A DNA stretch of 64,000 bases from the NCBI GenBank assembly GCA_963677485.1, contig OY781964.1, positions 1,344,001-1,408,000 of the forward strand. The letters run 5' to 3'. Shown here in pieces: positions 22,068 through 42,341 of this stretch (the stretch's first letter is position 1; each line of letters begins with the position of its first letter). Source of the DNA: Armatimonadota bacterium (GTDB taxonomy: Bacteria > Armatimonadota > HRBIN16). The translations under genes and the position numbers were made by a program. Below the pieces are notes generated by a model. The model had not been told where the DNA came from, ran no database searches, and was given only the letters and a program-made list of their open reading frames with translations.

Positions 22068-24812
22068 TTACGCAATAATGATAGAAACCCCCGCCACGCC
22101 CCAGTCGGCGGGCAGGAACAACAGATTTCCGCTGGTGCTGCTCAGGCGGAGCGTCAGCGTATGGTCACCTGCCGCAAGACCGCTCACGTCGAACCGGTAG
22201 GGTGGGGTGACGCGCTTGCCCAGCGACTGACCGTCCACTAGCAGCTCCAGGCAGTCGTGTTTGAGCAGTTCCACATCGAAACCCACGGTCTGGTTGGCCT
22301 GCGGCTCGGAAAGCGAGAAGCGGCCCTCCAAGCCCATCACGCCCATGTACTGCTCCCATCCCTGCTGCATCAGGTTGATCGGCAGGTGCTGAGGGGTGAA
22401 GTTTTCGGCTGTGATGACGCAGTCCACCAGCCGGAAGTCGCCCATCAAGCAGACATCGCATGAGGGCATTACGTCCGCCTCGAAGAAGGCGTCGTTGTGG
22501 ACACTGGTTTCGAACTGCGGATACTCCAACCGCGCCGTCACCTGGTTGGTGCCCACTTTGACCAGACCTAGAATGTCCACGCAGCCCAGCCTGTCCCAAA
22601 CGATCGCCTCTTGTGCCTGCGAAAGATACACACTCTGGCCATTGACGGTCAGGGAGCGCAGATACTCGGTCTCAAACAGCATCCCCAACTGAGTTGGCAG
22701 GCTCTGGCACTCAAACTGAGCACGCATCTCAAAGTGGGTCTCGCCGCGCAGGACGGCAGGGATGCCGGTGCAGTTTCGGGGTAGTTCTGGTATGAACGGG
22801 TCCATACTGGTGGCTGCGATCCAGCCTTCTTGGCCTCTGAACTCCATGTCGGACAGGGTGGCGGTGTTGGCGGTCTCCGGCGTCACACTCCACATCACAT
22901 CCAGAGGCTTCTGATGGCCCAATACGGGCTGAGCTGAGCTGGGCACGGCGGATGAAGTGAGGCTGAGGTATAGACAGCCCTGTGGGGCCATACAGTGCGC
23001 TTCTACGCCCTCCACAGCATACACAGCACCCGACAACGGCTCCCAGCGTGCCATATGCTGGCTTGAGCTGATGTTCACCGACACCGCTTCGGATGTGGTG
23101 TTGCGCAAGGCGAACAACTCACCATCACCGAACTCGTAGCGGGTCACCCGGATGGAACCAGCGGGTGCGTCGGTCTGCAGTGTCAGTCGCTCTGCCCAGC
23201 AGGACTTCTCTGAGGTGATATGTTGGATGATCTGAGCCGCAGGCTGGCGAAGAATCTGCGCGTTTTGTTTCTCCAGTCCGTCCAGCACCGCATCAGTGGC
23301 CTCGAAATATCTGAAATCTGAGGGGGCAATCAGCGCATCATATTCTGCATAAGGGAACTTGATGTGTCCGTCGCACAGCTCAGCCTGTCCCACCATCTCC
23401 GGGAACACAAACTCATAGCTTTCGCCTGCCTCATAGATCGCCCGACATACCTCCTCGGTCAGCGGCATCACCGGTTCCCCAGGCAAGCCAAAGCCGTTCT
23501 GGAAGGGGTTGTTCTGCTCCAGTTGATACTGCGGGTAGAGGACGGCGTAGCGGGCCTGGTGCTGGCCCAGCGAGGGCAGTGCGATGGAACGTGCGAAGGC
23601 ATCGCGGAACTGCGGAAAGAACTCCCACCAGGGGCAGCTTTGGAACAGCGGCGGCCAGTAGGTGCGCTTTCGTACACCGGTCAAGCCCTGATGGAAGCCC
23701 ATCAGCGCGATGTCGTTGATGCCGTAGATGCCGAACATCTGCGCCCGCTGCAGCATATCGGAGAGCCGCAGGTCATATCGCGAGATACCGAACGCCTCGC
23801 AATATACCCGGTCATGCCCGGAATGCCGTGCGATGCTGGGCACCAGCACCTCCTCCATGAACACATGTTCAGGATCGGGCATCATACCCAGGTAGTCGAT
23901 GCCCGGCTCATCCATCAGCGACAGGCACTGGTAGGCACTGCCGGCAAACTTCACCTGCATCAAGAACGCATTCTCCCCCAGATGGCCCGTATACCCCACC
24001 CCGTGAGCGTGGCACCAGTCCGACATCTGGGCGTGGTAGGCCTCCACATGCATCTGCTTCACCACGGCCCAGTAATCCTGGCGGAATTGGCATGGGGCCG
24101 GATCGGTCAGCTCCACATAATGGGCCTGTATGTCGTAGCCATGCATCTTCTCAAACCGCGCAGGCAGCTCGGGTGTCCAGGGCAGTCCGATGGTGTTCCA
24201 GCAGCCCTCCAGCCTCTTCTCGTTGATCACCATTGTGGTGGGCTCATCGGTGAAGAAGCCGCGCACCACCTCATGGAACAGCTCGCCACACTCTTCGTAG
24301 ATTCGCTGGTGGTTCATCTGGATAAAGCAGTTCACCGCGTCGACGGATAGTGTGTCCAGATAGCCGATCTCGTTTTGTGTCCATGGGGCACCAAGCGTGT
24401 TATCAAGCTGCACATCGGGATGAGAGGGCACTGCGGTCACGGCTCCGTGCTCATCCTTGTCGAACTTCAGGAACCAGCCGTTAAACTCCGGGTGCTCGCG
24501 CAGCAGGAAACCGCCAGCCACCCCGCTGGGCCACCCAAACTCGTCATACACCCACACCTTCAGACCGTGCTTCTTAGCAAGTGTCAGCGCATGCCGATAC
24601 CGCTCGAAGAACTCGTCGGACAGGTATGGGATGGTCATACCGTGTACGGGGTGGATCAGGAACTCCCGCAACCCGCTCGCGGCCATTTCAGCCACCACTT
24701 CGTCCATACGGGTATGGTTCATGTCGGCATTCCAGAACCAGAAGGCGCTGGGTCGGTAAGGTTGGCTCATCTCCAACCAGTTTTCGGCAAGGGTGTGCAG
24801 AGAGTTACTCAT
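22068..24812 (-). CDS. Glycoside hydrolase, GH106/alpha-L-rhamnosidase-like
   Basis: AFWFWN, YDEFGWPSG, GFFTDEP, PGIDYL; ATG 24812 after AGGAG. Confidence 0.75.
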   Translation of the reverse strand: MSNSLHTLAENWLEMSQPYRPSAFWFWNADMNHTRMDEVVAEMAASGLREFLIHPVHGMTIPYLSDEFFERYRHALTLAKKHGLKVWVYDEFGWPSGVAGGFLLREHPEFNGWFLKFDKDEHGAVTAVPSHPDVQLDNTLGAPWTQNEIGYLDTLSVDAVNCFIQMNHQRIYEECGELFHEVVRGFFTDEPTTMVINEKRLEGCWNTIGLPWTPELPARFEKMHGYDIQAHYVELTDPAPCQFRQDYWAVVKQMHVEAYHAQMSDWCHAHGVGYTGHLGENAFLMQVKFAGSAYQCLSLMDEPGIDYLGMMPDPEHVFMEEVLVPSIARHSGHDRVYCEAFGISRYDLRLSDMLQRAQMFGIYGINDIALMGFHQGLTGVRKRTYWPPLFQSCPWWEFFPQFRDAFARSIALPSLGQHQARYAVLYPQYQLEQNNPFQNGFGLPGEPVMPLTEEVCRAIYEAGESYEFVFPEMVGQAELCDGHIKFPYAEYDALIAPSDFRYFEATDAVLDGLEKQNAQILRQPAAQIIQHITSEKSCWAERLTLQTDAPAGSIRVTRYEFGDGELFALRNTTSEAVSVNISSSQHMARWEPLSGAVYAVEGVEAHCMAPQGCLYLSLTSSAVPSSAQPVLGHQKPLDVMWSVTPETANTATLSDMEFRGQEGWIAATSMDPFIPELPRNCTGIPAVLRGETHFEMRAQFECQSLPTQLGMLFETEYLRSLTVNGQSVYLSQAQEAIVWDRLGCVDILGLVKVGTNQVTARLEYPQFETSVHNDAFFEADVMPSCDVCLMGDFRLVDCVITAENFTPQHLPINLMQQGWEQYMGVMGLEGRFSLSEPQANQTVGFDVELLKHDCLELLVDGQSLGKRVTPPYRFDVSGLAAGDHTLTLRLSSTSGNLLFLPADWGVAGVSIIIA

Positions 24813-24881
24813 GATGTCTCCTGAATGATGAACGTATCGGTAATATTTAACCACAACCGCAGTCTTCTGGGCAGACGCACG

Positions 24882-25195
24882 AAGGGCGGTTCTCGAACCG
24901 CCACGACACGCCAGACCGCGCCAGGGATTTGTCTGAACCACGGATTACACGGATGGGATCGGATAGGTTCGGATGGGAAGGGAGGCCAATCAGGAGATTG
25001 GCGTTCCCAGGGGAATTCCCCCTCTGCGTCCTTGCATCCTTGCGCCTTTGCGTTGGTTGATCGCACCTTTCGTGCCGATAACCAAATCTGCGCAATCTGC
25101 GTCATCTGTGGATTTAAATCCCTTGGTGCCTCATGCCATCAGCTACGGAAATGGCCTTTCCTCGACGCAAGAAGGGCGGTTCGCGAACCGCCCCT
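24882..25195. repeat. Mosaic of REP-like hairpins and short-period repeats
   Basis: AAGGGCGGTTC(T/G)CGAACCGCC twice, GCCAATCAGGAGATTGGC, and ACCACGGATTACACGGAT also seen near 35600. Confidence 0.7.
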
Positions 25196-25209
25196 AGTAC
25201 GCTATATAT

Positions 25210-25410
25210 GGTGAGCTCCCCGGACACCAAAAGCAGTCGGGGAGCTAATCTCACCCCTTAGCTGGGGGTGAAGGAGAAGGATTGGATGCCGGAACCGCCC
25301 CTGGTGGAAAACACCGTGACGTAGATAGGCATCCTTCTCCCAATCAACCCATATCGAACAGTATCTTGGGAGAAAACCCCGTGTTCGCTAGGCTGATTTG
25401 GTTGATTGCA
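25210..25410 (+). ncRNA. Predicted IS110 bridge RNA (ends approximate)
   Basis: 5' hairpin plus two stem-closed internal loops whose guide segments match the target and donor junction sequences. Confidence 0.85.
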
Positions 25411-25441
25411 CCATCAATCACTACCAACTGGAGATTACCAC

Positions 25442-26718
25442 ATGCACGAAGTTGAAGACAAAATCTACATCCATTATGTCGGGATCGACATCTCGAAATT
25501 GACGTTTGACGCGTCTGTATTAGGTTCATCGCACAAGCCGATAGACCATAAGGAGTTCAAGAACAACAAGGCCGGATACAAGGAGTTGTTGTCATGGGTG
25601 AAGAAGCTTACCCGAACTCCCGCCTTGTATGCGGCTGAAGCCACCGGGCCTTACAGCCGACCGCTGCTTGATTACCTCTACGAGCACCAGCACGATGCTG
25701 TCCAACTGGAGCCAAAACGGGTTCTCTATCACCGCAAAGCCAAAGGCTGGGAACAAAAGACGGACTGCTCTGACAGCGTGCTAATCGCTGACTATGTGAA
25801 AAGTCACAATGTCTCACTCTATGTCCCTCGTCTAGCATGCTATGATGCGCTTATTGGTTACACCAATGACCGCCGTATGAGGCGATCGCCCAGCGCCAAA
25901 GCTGTCGGCTTACGCGGAGCACAGTGCTGGACGAGATGATCGCTTTTCATGACATGGGCATCAAAAAGCTTGATGTTCAGATCAAAGAGCTTGTGATGAG
26001 TTCACCGCAGATGACCGAAGATATGGCTCTGCTGAAGAGCATTCCGGGTATCGGCGACGTCACAGCAAGCTATTTCCTTGCGAAAATCGGTGATGCTAAA
26101 CGATTTGAAACATCGAAAGCGGTCGCGCGCTATTTCGGAATGAACCCCTGCCCGCAACGGTCAGGAAGCTGCAAGACATACGACGGCTCCATATCCAAGA
26201 TGGGTGACCGATATATGCGGACATTACTCTACTGTGGATCGAGCACTGTGGTGAAGATGGTCAACGGTAAGTCGAAAAAGCTTGGCCAGAGCATGCACGA
26301 CTTCGTGAAGGAACTGCAGCATCCGAATTTGGTAAAGAATCCCAATAAGAAACCGAAGTCCAAGCGAGTTGTCCGGTGCGCAATCATGCGCAAGCAGCTG
26401 GTGCTCATGTGGTCGGTATTAATCAGCCGTCAGCCATATGATCCAAACTTCGGCATCGAACAAGCTTCAAATGCGGCCAACCAGCAACCGCTGACCGACG
26501 CGAACGGACATGTCCAGGATCGTGCCGGAGCGGCCCATGATATAGCCGGTGTAGGCAATGATCCTGGGCTGGACGTGAGCGTTCCAAGACGGGGATGCGT
26601 GGATGGAAATCCCACCAATGAGCCCACTCCTGCCGGCGGTGGTCGGCCCGCATCCCGAAACCGGCCATCGCGCAGTCGGGTGGGCAACAAACCGAGGGTT
26701 CTGACACCAGTATCCTAG
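25442..26718 (+). pseudogene. IS110 recombinase split by a frameshift near 25878
   Basis: Frame 1 has GIDISK, EATG, KTDCSD (DEDD). The -1 frame has SIPGIG, YFGMNP..RSGS, ISKMGD. Confidence 0.85.
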
Positions 26719-27073
26719 CTGCGGCAGTCTGCCGATAGCACGCATCGAAGCATAACGATATCTTTCGAAGCCACGAAGATGTCGCACGTCCGTTCGCGAC
26801 TCCGAGCGTCATGTGAGGTGCTACGGACCAACTGATGCCATCTGAGCCTGTTTCTGTCGCGGATCCAGGTTTGGTCTATATGCCACAAACATCACATTAA
26901 CGTTATTCTACGTGGTCTAGAGCCAGTGTCTGATATTCAGGTCCAAATCCCCAGATTTGCCCCTGGGGACTTGACAAAAGCCACAGTATCTACGAATATA
27001 TGCGGTGAGATCGGGTTTTGGGGGCGATGTGTAGGGGCGTTTCGAGAAACGCCCTTCCCATGCTGCCGACGGT

Positions 27074-28984
27074 TTAGTCTCCCCGCACGGACACAATCCG
27101 AAAGGTGCCGGACTCCACGCTCAGGCTGACCTCGCCGCCCACCAAAGGCATCGCCAGCTCAGGATGCAGCTCATCCTGGCAGCGCAGCGGATTTCGCTCC
27201 GTTATGCCCATCCCACGACGGTGGAAGCTCAAGGCCGTCGTGACCCTGCTGCTGCCCAGATTCGCCACGATGAACAGGGCCCGATGTCCCTTCACCAGAT
27301 AGGCGCTGATCTTGATATTCTCCGTGTTAGAGGAATGGATCAGCTCCTGTGTCTTCCAGTACGGCACCCAGACTGCACCGGTCATCCCGAAAGATCCGAA
27401 GGCTTTCCAGATGTCCGACTGGTGCTCAGGATGCCATATCATCATCACATCGTAGAGTATGGCCAGACTGCGCGCCCGTTCGCGTTCGACCGCATTTCCA
27501 GATATCGGCAATTGGGTGGCGGGTATACCGAAGTTGTGCCCGTGCATCTCTGCACGGAACACATCCTCAGGGTATTCGGGAGTGCCCAGCTTCATCATCG
27601 ACAGCAGATGCTCGCCATCAACGTAGAAATCTGCGAACGAGAGGGCAGGCAGTAGCACGCTAGCCGAGGTGTGGCAGAACAAGATGCCTGGCTTTGCTTG
27701 ATCCTTGACCAGACGATACAGCCCCTTCATCAGCTCCCGCGTGCGCCAGATGGCCATCGTGGGGTGGATTGTGCCATCTTTGCCCCGATACCCGCAACCG
27801 TGCCGGGTGTTAACACACGGCAACGGACAGCTCAAACCGTCGGTGTAAATGCCCCCAAAGCCGTATTCGGCGACTGCCGCGGTGTATTGCTTCAACAGCA
27901 GCTCGGGATAGGGCGTGGCGTTACACACGATACGGCAGATGTCCTGGTTGTCGGGCCTTTGGTACTGGTAGTGATCGCCTATCGGCAGAGAATCCCATCG
28001 GCTCGAATATTCTGGCGATCGAGTGGACATATAGCACCCGGTATAGGGCACAAGCCGCATCCCCTTGGCTCTACAGGCCGCAATCAATGTCCGCAGCTCT
28101 TGAGGGTCTTTCGGCCTGGGCAGGCTCTGCTGGTCGGACCAAGACTCGTGAAACCCCAGATAGTTCACGCCCAGACCAGCCAGCACGTCCAGATAGGCGG
28201 GTTGAGTGGCAGGATCAGGGCTCTTCTCGATGCCGTATCCGCCCATATGGCAATAGCGCATTTGGTAGTAGTCGGCGGGCCACGGCTTCACCGGGGTGGC
28301 CATAAACCCAAAGCACCACTCCCAGTCACCGGTCAACCGATGACGGCTCAGCAGGTTCATCCTGAGGGTCGTCACATTGCAGTCTGGTAGCACCGTGATG
28401 GCACTCTCTGGGTCAGCAGGCGACCAGGGTTCATCGCTTTCGGAAAAGAACTGGATTCCCCTGTCGTCACTGCCCAGCCAAAGATGGTGAACAAACGGCA
28501 GCTTCATCCCCTCAGGCTTGACCGCACCGGCGTTGATGCGCTTTTTGGGCCAGTCCCACACATGAGTCGGGTAGACGGAAGCATGATGGAAATACGAGGC
28601 GTCGCTCCGCTTCAGAGGAATCACCAGATCCAGCGAATCCAGGCTGAGCTCTTTGCCTGCCGAGAGTTTCATGTCGATCCTGGTCATACCATCAAATTCG
28701 GTGGTGATTCGGCAGGTAACGGACAGCTCACGGCTGCTAGCATGGGTCACATACTGCACTGACTCCCTGTCGGAGCTCATTTCTTTGAATTTGATGTTGC
28801 TCCACCGCAGCCTCTTTCCAGCGGTGATGGCGACCAACTGCATCGGCCCAGCAAGGATGTTCTTCTTCTGCGAGATGACTTTCGCCGGAAGCAGCGACAG
28901 GTTGTAGTCGTAAACCCGCCCCCAGCAGTGAACCGACTGCCCCCGTATGACAGGGATGCTCCACGGTGAGATCGTTGCTGCCAT
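27074..28984 (-). CDS. Putative glycoside hydrolase-like protein (DUF6067-like)
   Basis: GGIYTDG, EFDGM and ATPVKP motifs; lies in the carbohydrate gene cluster. Confidence 0.55.
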   Translation of the reverse strand: MAATISPWSIPVIRGQSVHCWGRVYDYNLSLLPAKVISQKKNILAGPMQLVAITAGKRLRWSNIKFKEMSSDRESVQYVTHASSRELSVTCRITTEFDGMTRIDMKLSAGKELSLDSLDLVIPLKRSDASYFHHASVYPTHVWDWPKKRINAGAVKPEGMKLPFVHHLWLGSDDRGIQFFSESDEPWSPADPESAITVLPDCNVTTLRMNLLSRHRLTGDWEWCFGFMATPVKPWPADYYQMRYCHMGGYGIEKSPDPATQPAYLDVLAGLGVNYLGFHESWSDQQSLPRPKDPQELRTLIAACRAKGMRLVPYTGCYMSTRSPEYSSRWDSLPIGDHYQYQRPDNQDICRIVCNATPYPELLLKQYTAAVAEYGFGGIYTDGLSCPLPCVNTRHGCGYRGKDGTIHPTMAIWRTRELMKGLYRLVKDQAKPGILFCHTSASVLLPALSFADFYVDGEHLLSMMKLGTPEYPEDVFRAEMHGHNFGIPATQLPISGNAVERERARSLAILYDVMMIWHPEHQSDIWKAFGSFGMTGAVWVPYWKTQELIHSSNTENIKISAYLVKGHRALFIVANLGSSRVTTALSFHRRGMGITERNPLRCQDELHPELAMPLVGGEVSLSVESGTFRIVSVRGD

Positions 28985-34638: not shown

Positions 34639-34909
34639 TTTCAGCCCCTCACACAGCTTCCCACTAGCCCTCTATATAAACCGATAATTCGTCATAAACC
34701 TTGTACATAACTAGTCGTAGGGGCGTCCCTTGTATGCTACGACAGTGTCTATTACAGTATGGGTTGACTTGAACTCAAGAGCAGTGCTTCAAAATAAGCA
34801 ATCGCCTGCACATTCGTTATCTAATATACTTTTATACACCACTATATATTGCATTGGCTCATTTTATGAGGGTATAATGAATGAACATTACGCTTCAAGT
34901 GAGGGTGCC

Positions 34910-42253: not shown

Positions 42254-42341
42254 GTCGTAGGGGCGTCCCTTGTGGGCGCCCTAATCGTTGTTGATTCGAT
42301 AGTTTTGGTTTTAAGGCGCCCACAAGGGACGCCCCTACGAC
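42254..42341. repeat. Perfect inverted REP pair (27-bp arms)
   Basis: GTCGTAGGGGCGTCCCTTGTGGGCGCC / GGCGCCCACAAGGGACGCCCCTACGAC. Confidence 0.85.

Follow-up and report, generated by a model that had tools for sequence, protein, structure and literature searches.

Locus and limits of the element

The stretch of DNA analysed here (the window, 64,000 nucleotides [nt]) is G000:C1:1344001-1408000, part of the 5.22-Mb single-contig genome of an Armatimonadota bacterium (G000; 54% G+C). It contains a defective copy of an IS110-family insertion sequence (IS), which lies within the CTAC foot of a repetitive extragenic palindromic (REP) sequence located between two genes (Table 1). The element starts at 25196 (AGTACGC / AGTACGCTATATATGG) and terminates with ...CACAGTAT-CT at 26991, after which the flank continues with ACGAAT from 26992; terminal inverted repeats are absent from the ends as judged by eye, no repeat search having been run. 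An earlier reading made from the sequence alone (the sequence-only reading) had described the REP, its inverted partner and the flanks of the element, and all of these statements about the sequence are correct. The REP doublet interrupted by this copy is otherwise ordinary. We consider, with a probability of roughly 0.88, that this is an IS621-type element of the IS110 group, aimed at the REP foot by a bridge RNA in its 246-nt left end.

Table 1. Features of the element, its predicted bridge RNA and the neighbouring REPs, in positions of the window.
Feature	Position	Strand	Remarks
Hairpin of the interrupted REP, AAGGGCGGTTCGCGAACCGCCC	25172..25193	-	last 7 nt, ACCGCCC, are the left target half
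Core dinucleotide CT, left copy	25194..25195	+	CT at both junctions of 12/12 copies
IS110-family element, defective copy	25196..26991	+	1796 nt including the right-hand CT; intact, 1812 nt
Right donor half AGTACGC (first 7 nt of left end)	25196..25202	+	overlaps the -10-like TACGCT, 25198-25203
Target-binding loop, predicted bridge RNA	25273..25340	+	stems 25273-25281/25332-25340 and 25287-25290/25328-25331; inner hairpin 25303-25315
Left target guide ACCGCCCCT (predicted)	25294-25302	+	11-nt match starts at 25292
Right target guide CGTAG (predicted)	25320-25324	+	complement of CTACG
Donor-binding loop (predicted)	25342..25407	+	outer stem AATCAACC/GGTTGATT, 25342-25349/25400-25407; inner hairpin 25367-25380
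Left donor guide ACAGTATCT (predicted)	25358-25366	+	identical to the right-end terminus, 26983-26991
Right donor guide GTGT and GCTAG (predicted)	25381-25384 and 25387-25391	+	would pair with CT-AGTACGC via two G-T wobbles
N-terminal recombinase fragment, RuvC-like DEDD domain	25442..25939	+	PF01548, 4.9e-20; out of frame past 25879/25880
C-terminal recombinase part: Tnp domain, conserved serine, ~90-aa tail	25880..26718	+	PF02371, 1.9e-22; frame of ORF 25924-26718
Right non-coding end, 273 nt	26719..26991	+	TTGACA 26971-26976; left donor half ACAGTAT 26983-26989; core CT 26990-26991
AC, right target half, completing the CTAC foot of the interrupted REP	26992..26993	+	from the junction; G001 has CT-AT there
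Intact partner REP GTAGGGGCGTTTCGAGAAACGCCCTT, inverted orientation	27031..27056	+	removal of the element gives a REP doublet with a 37-nt spacer, a doublet also present in G001
Free REP of another subfamily (..GGCGCCCACAAGGGACGCCC-CT-ACGAC)	42305..42340	-	partner REP begins near 42257

Copies of the element and an empty site in a sister species

A BLAST search of this region against the genome revealed 12 near-identical copies of the element, ten of them 1812 nt long and two, the window copy and that at genome positions 1872954-1871159, 1796 nt long. With the 16-nt deletion set aside, the alignment of the 12 copies has 6 variable columns. In four public runs, the depth of the element contig is ~12x that of its flanks, which fits 12 copies, and this depth together with the small number of variable columns is evidence for a recent spread of the element. 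On the 5.22-Mb chromosome, the 12 copies are confined to the interval from 0.72 to 3.30 Mb.

The junctions are the same in every copy: the left flank ends in ...CCC-CT, the element reads AGTACGC...CAGTAT-CT, and the right flank opens with A, followed by C in 11 copies and by T in one. The left foot is CGCCC-CT in eleven copies and GCCCC-CT at genome position 2863787, and the 7-mers in front of the core are ACCGCCC (six copies), ATCGCCC (three copies), AACGCCC, CCCGCCC and CCGCCCC (one copy each). The proposal that other copies would be flanked by ACCGCCC-CT-ACG thus held in all 12 copies for the place of the cut (...CCC-CT / AC or AT), and in 6 of the 12 for the 7-mer itself. A REP-like hairpin stands to the left of all 12 copies, in variants (GGTT/AACC, GATT/AATC and GTTT/AAAC) that change from copy to copy while the element stays constant. 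The 12 right flanks are all different and unrelated past the AC, and the left contexts differ beyond the REP.

Where the element is missing, the REP is whole. The complete genome of a sister species of the same genus (G001) contains no copy of the window element, and nine copies of a related element instead. G001:C1:961139-962035 corresponds to window positions 24300-25196 (95% identity) and G001:C1:962038-962943 to 26995-27900 (90% identity), with two bases between the two matches. The empty locus reads GAACCGCCCCTATCAATATTTGCGG (...AAGGGCGGTTCTCGAACCGCCC-CT-ATCAATATTTGCGG...), an uninterrupted REP, and then continues into the partner REP. This allele fixes the limits of the element to within the shared CT(A), no other bases having been gained or lost. 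Insertion at the CT of a REP foot, as deduced in the sequence-only reading, is therefore seen both in all 12 copies and in this allele, and the empty site that it suggested looking for in related genomes does exist, with its REP intact. A second, rougher empty site is the G001 counterpart of the copy at genome position 2029089, which reads ...GAATCGCCCCGACCAACC. Two further copies yielded no usable empty site in G001: one flank of the copy at 2530251 has no match there, and the flanks of the copy at 722757 lie 89 kb apart. Several copies are located at synteny breaks relative to G001, their left and right flanks mapping to separate places.

The rebuilt site had been taken for a member of a REP family, and such a family is present. 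In G000, 179 hairpins of the form GGGCG-N6-14-CGCCC, which belong to several subfamilies, are followed by CTAC; of the tetranucleotides that follow 658 strand-wise hairpin matches, CTAC is the most frequent, with 179 occurrences vs 38 for the runner-up. When stop-to-stop frames of at least 150 codons are used as a crude proxy for genes in place of an annotation, 31% of the 179 REP sites lie inside such frames vs 90% of the genome, and 69% lie outside them vs 10% of the genome. The subfamily with a TTCGCGAA centre comprises ~41 loci (83 hits with both strands counted), 10 of which hold the element and 18 of which read CT-AC and are free; the remaining two element copies adjoin hairpins of other forms. 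Three PF01797 (Y1-transposase) genes are present in G000, and neither the GTAGGGG / CCCCTAC motif nor a REP of the family that is hit was found within 1.5 kb of them. The label REP is therefore based on form, copy number and location, and not on a partner gene for a REP-associated tyrosine transposase (RAYT).

Could the REP-like flanks instead be the element's own termini, so that a longer element carries the two REP halves with it? In every copy, indeed, the hairpin is the left neighbour of the element and AC the right one. However, 179 REPs with an intact CTAC foot are present in the genome, the G001 locus is a whole REP with nothing inside it, and the hairpin variants differ among copies of a constant element. 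We regard this explanation as already refuted by these three observations, and assign it practically no weight.

Recombinase gene and its defect in the window copy

The assignment to IS110 in the sequence-only reading was borne out by matches to PF01548 and PF02371, both above the curated cut-offs, and by the match of an intact sibling protein to the IS621 transposase. In the window copy the two domains lie on two frames; an intact sibling copy has one open reading frame (ORF) of 430 amino acids (aa), compared with which the window copy lacks 16 bases between the two domains. This 430-aa frame was read out for one copy and is implied by the alignment for the other intact copies. The sibling protein matches the IS621 transposase 8wt6 with E 2.5e-28 (residues 10-274) and ISCro4 9t56 with E 5e-26 (residues 10-277). 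When it is aligned to 8wt6, the IS621 residues D11, E60, D102/D105 and S241 are conserved, in the motifs GIDISK, EATG, KTDCSD and QRSGS; catalytic roles for D11, E60, D102, D105 and S241 of IS621 are described in PMC11208158.

The recombinase gene is split by the 16-nt deletion behind 25879, which is common to the window copy and to the copy at 1872954-1871159. The sequence-only reading had missed this defect. Of the four public runs, three have contigs with CTGGTGCAACACAGAC inserted behind 25879, and the fourth has both forms. Because the deletion shifts the frame in the coiled-coil linker, the window copy cannot make the recombinase; it is non-autonomous, and its recombinase gene is a pseudogene. 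Since two loci carry this deletion, it may have spread by movement of a defective copy in trans or, alternatively, by gene conversion.

The recombinase belongs to a small clade of long-tailed proteins. In a search of 5.8 billion proteins, 7 of the 120 best matches listed are 41-95% identical to it, and all seven are 400-433 aa long; the other listed matches are at most 34% identical and mostly ~320-330 aa long. The C-terminal tail of ~90 aa (residues ~342-430; window 26450-26715, in the second frame) is conserved in all eight aligned proteins of the clade, with the motifs ANQ..SD..G.VQ.RAGAA..AG.GN, and is absent from relatives of IS621 length. AlphaFold2 leaves this tail unstructured (predicted local distance difference test score, pLDDT, 21-33); the mean pLDDT of the model, which was built from 8 alignment rows, is 59.9 and thus too low for a fold search. 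An alignment search of one genome for each of 185,579 species returned the G001 element as the only relative above 40% identity, the rest being at most ~40% identical and partial, and a single-protein search of representative genomes found no close relative.

A predicted bridge RNA in the left end

With a folding energy of -85.1 kcal/mol (z = -4.1), the left end (25196-25441) is predicted to be more stable than any of 200 shuffled sequences, and its fold contains two internal loops, which would correspond to the target-binding and donor-binding loops of a bridge RNA. Loop 1 carries GGAACCGCCCCT on its 5' side and GTGACGTAGATA on its 3' side. The first of the candidate guides agrees with the occupied sites, in that the 11-mer GAACCGCCCCT (25292-25302) is identical to the 11 nt to the left of 6 of the 12 copies. 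On the other side of the core, CGTAG complements the right flank CTACG in 4 copies, and GTAG complements CTAC in 11 copies. In IS621, the left guides bind the bottom strand and so carry the top-strand sequence, whereas the right guides bind the top strand; each pairing includes the core (PMC11208160). The predicted layout of guides in the left end is this published geometry, and in loop 2 the right donor half AGTACGC would pair with the right donor guide segment.

A natural series of retargeted elements

We compared four further elements of the clade: element 2 in G000, element 3 in G001, and the metagenome loci L152 and L153, the only two loci that a metagenome scan returned. Element 2, with ~42% aa identity, is found at G000 positions 1296590-1298388 and 2667671-2672041 (locus L053) and is associated with another REP subfamily; in its second copy, a 2.56-kb insertion flanked by a GCTCTA duplication separates 2668303 from 2670867. 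Nine copies of element 3 were found in G001, of which eight were read.

In an alignment that is 88% identical overall, the columns of the left guide are the most variable, and these changes are mirrored in the flanks. The window element has the predicted guide ACCGCCC and the flank ACCGCCC, and element 2 has CGCGCCC in both, with CCTGCCC beside its second copy. For element 3, the guide GTCATCC faces GTCATCC in five of the eight copies read and GTCGTCC in two of the eight, and at L018 it faces GTCATCC with an offset (by eye). The guide of L152 is CGTGCCC and its flank CATGCCC; that of L153 is GTGGCCC and its flank GTTGCCC. All five elements cut at hairpin-CC-CT / ACG. The right donor half is AGTACGC in the window element vs TGTATGC in the others, a difference at two positions, and the right donor guide differs in step at both pairing positions. 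The suggestion in the sequence-only reading that the strategy of IS621 has been retargeted to the REP of another host is thus supported, by the bridge-RNA-like left end and by the flank matches of GAACCGCCCCT and CGTAG.

Occupancy follows the match to the guide. When the sites of the genome were counted by Hamming distance from ACCGCCCCTAC, 6 were occupied and 3 free at 0 mismatches, 4 occupied and 168 free at 1 mismatch (the free sites including 9 left-junction or look-alike sites), 1 occupied and 951 free at 2 mismatches, and 1 occupied and 5298 free at 3 mismatches (0 mismatches vs the rest, Fisher test, p = 8e-16). The class of the partner REP at 27031, AACGCCC, is occupied at 1 site and free at 6. 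A free site near 42330 had been proposed in the sequence-only reading as near-cognate, a view that we do not share. The site reads ...GGGACGCCCCTACGAC, with CGCCCCTA starting at 42330; as GACGCCC-CT-AC it has two guide mismatches, and because its class is occupied at 0 of 93 sites, it is a poor target and not a near-cognate one.

Proposed mechanism and competing explanations

How might the element recognise the REP foot? We propose that its recombinase, which combines an N-terminal RuvC-like DEDD domain with a C-terminal serine-bearing Tnp domain, is directed by the two loops of the predicted bridge RNA. Loop 1 would read the REP, its left target guide corresponding to the top strand ...GAACCGCCC-CT and its right guide CGUAG pairing with CT-ACG, and loop 2 would read the junction formed by the two ends of the element, ACAGTAT-CT-AGTACGC. 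After recombination at the CT that donor and target have in common, the element would have the hairpin on its left and the AC of the CTAC foot on its right, and nothing but the CT would be duplicated. The window copy has lost neither end nor the bridge-RNA region, so it could be mobilised in trans by the ten intact copies. If this scheme is correct, the RNA would be made, a circular intermediate would be formed, and the element may be active today. In such a circle, TTGACA (26971-26976) and TACGCT (25198-25203) might constitute a junction promoter with 17-nt spacing: TTGACA lies 15 nt from the right terminus, the AG of the left end completes the spacing to TACGCT, and TTGACA and TATGCT are found at the corresponding positions of the four relatives.

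Several observations count against this proposal. First, the bridge RNA is a prediction, both as to its existence and as to its ends. A search of Rfam 15 with window positions 24800-27400 gave no family match at E <= 1, and in the alignment of the five elements both partners have changed with pairing retained at 14 of 81 consensus pairs, a covariation that is supportive and not strong, with five sequences of which four are close relatives. Second, at 273 nt (26719-26991) the right end exceeds the left end (246 nt, 25196-25441) in length, whereas in the IS110 group the left end is typically, if not obligatorily, much longer than the right (PMC11208160). Third, TACGCT matches TATAAT at 3 of 6 positions, and a simple promoter scan of the integrated copy gave a single minus-strand site (1.7 expected) and no + strand site in the left end. 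Fourth, in the four public runs, which consist of assembled contigs only and are therefore neutral on excision, no contig skips the element and no circle junction is seen; three contig joints (25012/25013 to 25171, and 25114 to 25164) are located within other repeats to the left of the REP. Finally, one copy occupies a site with three guide mismatches (CCGCCCC-CT-AC), which suggests that base pairing alone may not be the whole rule.

We also considered dual recognition, in which the RNA guides are necessary and the REP hairpin is a second determinant read by the recombinase, so that the element is confined to hairpin sites. This has been proposed for ISPpu10, where the target stem-loop is described as an extra determinant (10.64898/2026.03.19.712850). 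All 12 copies adjoin a hairpin as judged by eye, including those at the guide-divergent sites CCCGCCC and CCGCCCC, and an exact 11-mer at genome position 2591108, which has no REP hairpin to its left (by eye), is free. On the other hand, two of the three free exact sites do carry a hairpin, and because the matching 11-mers in G000 lie almost all inside REPs, counting cannot separate sequence from structure. A part for the hairpin is a tentative addition, for which the odds are distinctly lower than for recognition by the RNA guides.

Another explanation is that the element is an inactive fossil, its 12 copies having arisen by segmental duplication or homologous recombination and having merely inherited their association with REPs. 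In its favour, the window copy and one other copy are frameshifted, the contigs of the public runs give no signal of excision or of a circle, and several copies lie at synteny breaks relative to G001. However, the 12 right flanks are all different and the left contexts diverge beyond the REP, ten copies keep an intact 430-aa frame with 6 variable columns among the 12, the G001 locus is empty in a genome without the element, and occupancy tracks the guide match. We consider this origin very improbable.

Relation to known REP-targeting elements

REP targeting was reportedly shown for IS621 by Choi et al. in 2003. The sequence-only reading had stated that IS621 of Escherichia coli targets REPs through a CT core, and this agrees with the literature: its natural target, ATCAGGCCTAC, lies inside E. 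coli REPs, and 144 of 173 mapped insertion sites are in REPs (PMC11208160). Judged by this target, the window element and IS621 cut their REPs at homologous positions, where CT meets AC in the foot. The two elements further share both protein domains, the catalytic residues, the CT core and a left-end bridge RNA with target and donor loops (predicted for the window element); the -35 box described in the right end of IS621 (PMC11208160) would have a counterpart in the TTGACA of the window element. In contrast, the protein match is distant (E 2.5e-28 over residues 10-274), and the recombinase is 430 aa long vs 326 aa, with the conserved ~90-aa tail that is modelled as unstructured. The right end, at 273 nt, is not short, and the target is another REP family (ACCGCCC-CT-AC) in another host.

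Other known elements resemble it by description. ISPpu9 and ISPpu10 of Pseudomonas putida are IS110-family elements found specifically inside REPs (PMC1525189, PMC12288879), and ISPpu10 has a hairpin just 5' of the paired target (10.64898/2026.03.19.712850). ISCro4 (PDB 9t56) is a second solved relative, for which the likeness lies in the sequence match alone. Tobes and Pareja (2006, PMC1525189) list ISPsy8, ISPa11, ISPpu9, ISPpu10, ISRm19 and ISRm22 as REP-recognising insertion sequences, and the RNA-guided mechanism was published in 2024 (Durrant et al., PMC11208160; Hiraizumi et al., PMC11208158). Because REP targeting by IS110 elements and RNA guiding have both been published, this kind of element is already known, and the window element leaves the known mechanism unchanged. 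It is set apart by its small, long-tailed clade, by a right end as long as the left, and by a within-genus series of retargeted guides. It would provide a clean natural example of bridge-RNA targeting outside the proteobacteria. The five elements, each located at a matching hairpin foot, differ from one another chiefly in the left target guide of 7 nt and form a natural reprogramming series, in line with the rules established for IS621 in the laboratory.

Left-junction look-alikes and other repeats

At a number of places in G000, a REP foot is followed by CT and the first 7 nt of the left end and then by unrelated DNA, without an element. Six sites read CT-AGTACGC: those at 1990840, 2010709, 2382961 (without a hairpin) and 2869711 have a REP-type left flank, and those at 264922 and 3436709 lie behind another hairpin. 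Variants occur at 2851066 (AGTACGT) and 1903922 (core CA). Given 310 CGCCCCTA sites, ~0.08 would be expected by chance in front of GTACGC. Clear cases of the TGTATGC type in G000 are those at 3495660 and 2307949. In G001, CCCTTGTATGC occurs 15 times vs 1 in a reversed control, nine of these being elements and six not; although this genome has no AGTACGC element, hairpin-CT-AGTACGC was found at all six of the sites inspected among 12 pattern matches. The look-alike loci of G001, of the AGTACGC or the TGTATGC type, are L041, L044, L046, L048, L050, L052, L058, L060-L063 and L069. At position 8 the T of the element is present no more often than by chance, so the likeness ends after exactly 7 nt.

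What are these sites? A mini-element with both ends was rejected, as right-junction look-alikes (ACAGTATCTAC) outside elements number 5 vs 5 in the reversed control, that is, chance level, and a 3-nt footprint (CT-AGT-ACG...) fails for the TGTATGC type. When deletion scars or rearrangements were considered, the flanks of two of three look-alikes mapped to distant places in G001 and the third was syntenic; the intergenic DNA around them is too repeat-rich and diverged to place breakpoints. Two findings speak against a simple scar. The G001 counterpart of 1990840 is a normal CT-AC foot beside a related repeat module, the family consensus of which starts with GTCCGCT, and genome position 2167435 reads CT-AC-GTACGCG, so that GTACGC(G) also occurs as native REP-adjacent DNA. 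The look-alikes could be REP copies templated on occupied REPs, native variants of the foot to which the end of the element bears a likeness, or products of recombination with pseudo-donors. That they have a function, either as REP copies from occupied REPs, which would form a record of insertion and confer immunity to re-insertion, or as surrogate left ends, seems to us rather unlikely. If the former were true, the spread of REPs would record past insertions and yield REPs immune to re-insertion; if the latter, a stretch of host DNA with such a tag on one side and a right end downstream could be cut out and moved by the recombinase.

A few other repeats were noted. The REP-like unit GTAGGGGCGTCCCTTGTATGCTACGAC at window positions 34718-34745 has a loop region that contains CT-TGTATGC, the right donor half of the other elements. 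To the left of the interrupted REP, window positions 24888-25075 are highly repeated (contig depth 20-75x that of the flanks in the four runs) and built of short words of the CGGAT/GGATG type, and seem to represent another repeat family. A further family of ~190-250 nt (...GTCCGCTGAAGCGGAC...CTGCGCCGGCCGGAGCG...GATCAGCC...) has at least 13 copies in G000, sometimes abutting a REP foot (e.g., 1990843-1991035, 95741-95931 and 4119803-4119995). As a by-product of the pattern search, the sequence ...GATGCGCGTGCCTTGTATGCGGCGATCGAAC... was found to recur ~29 times in G000 (e.g., at 1046, 43516 and 2411979), and represents another multi-copy element.

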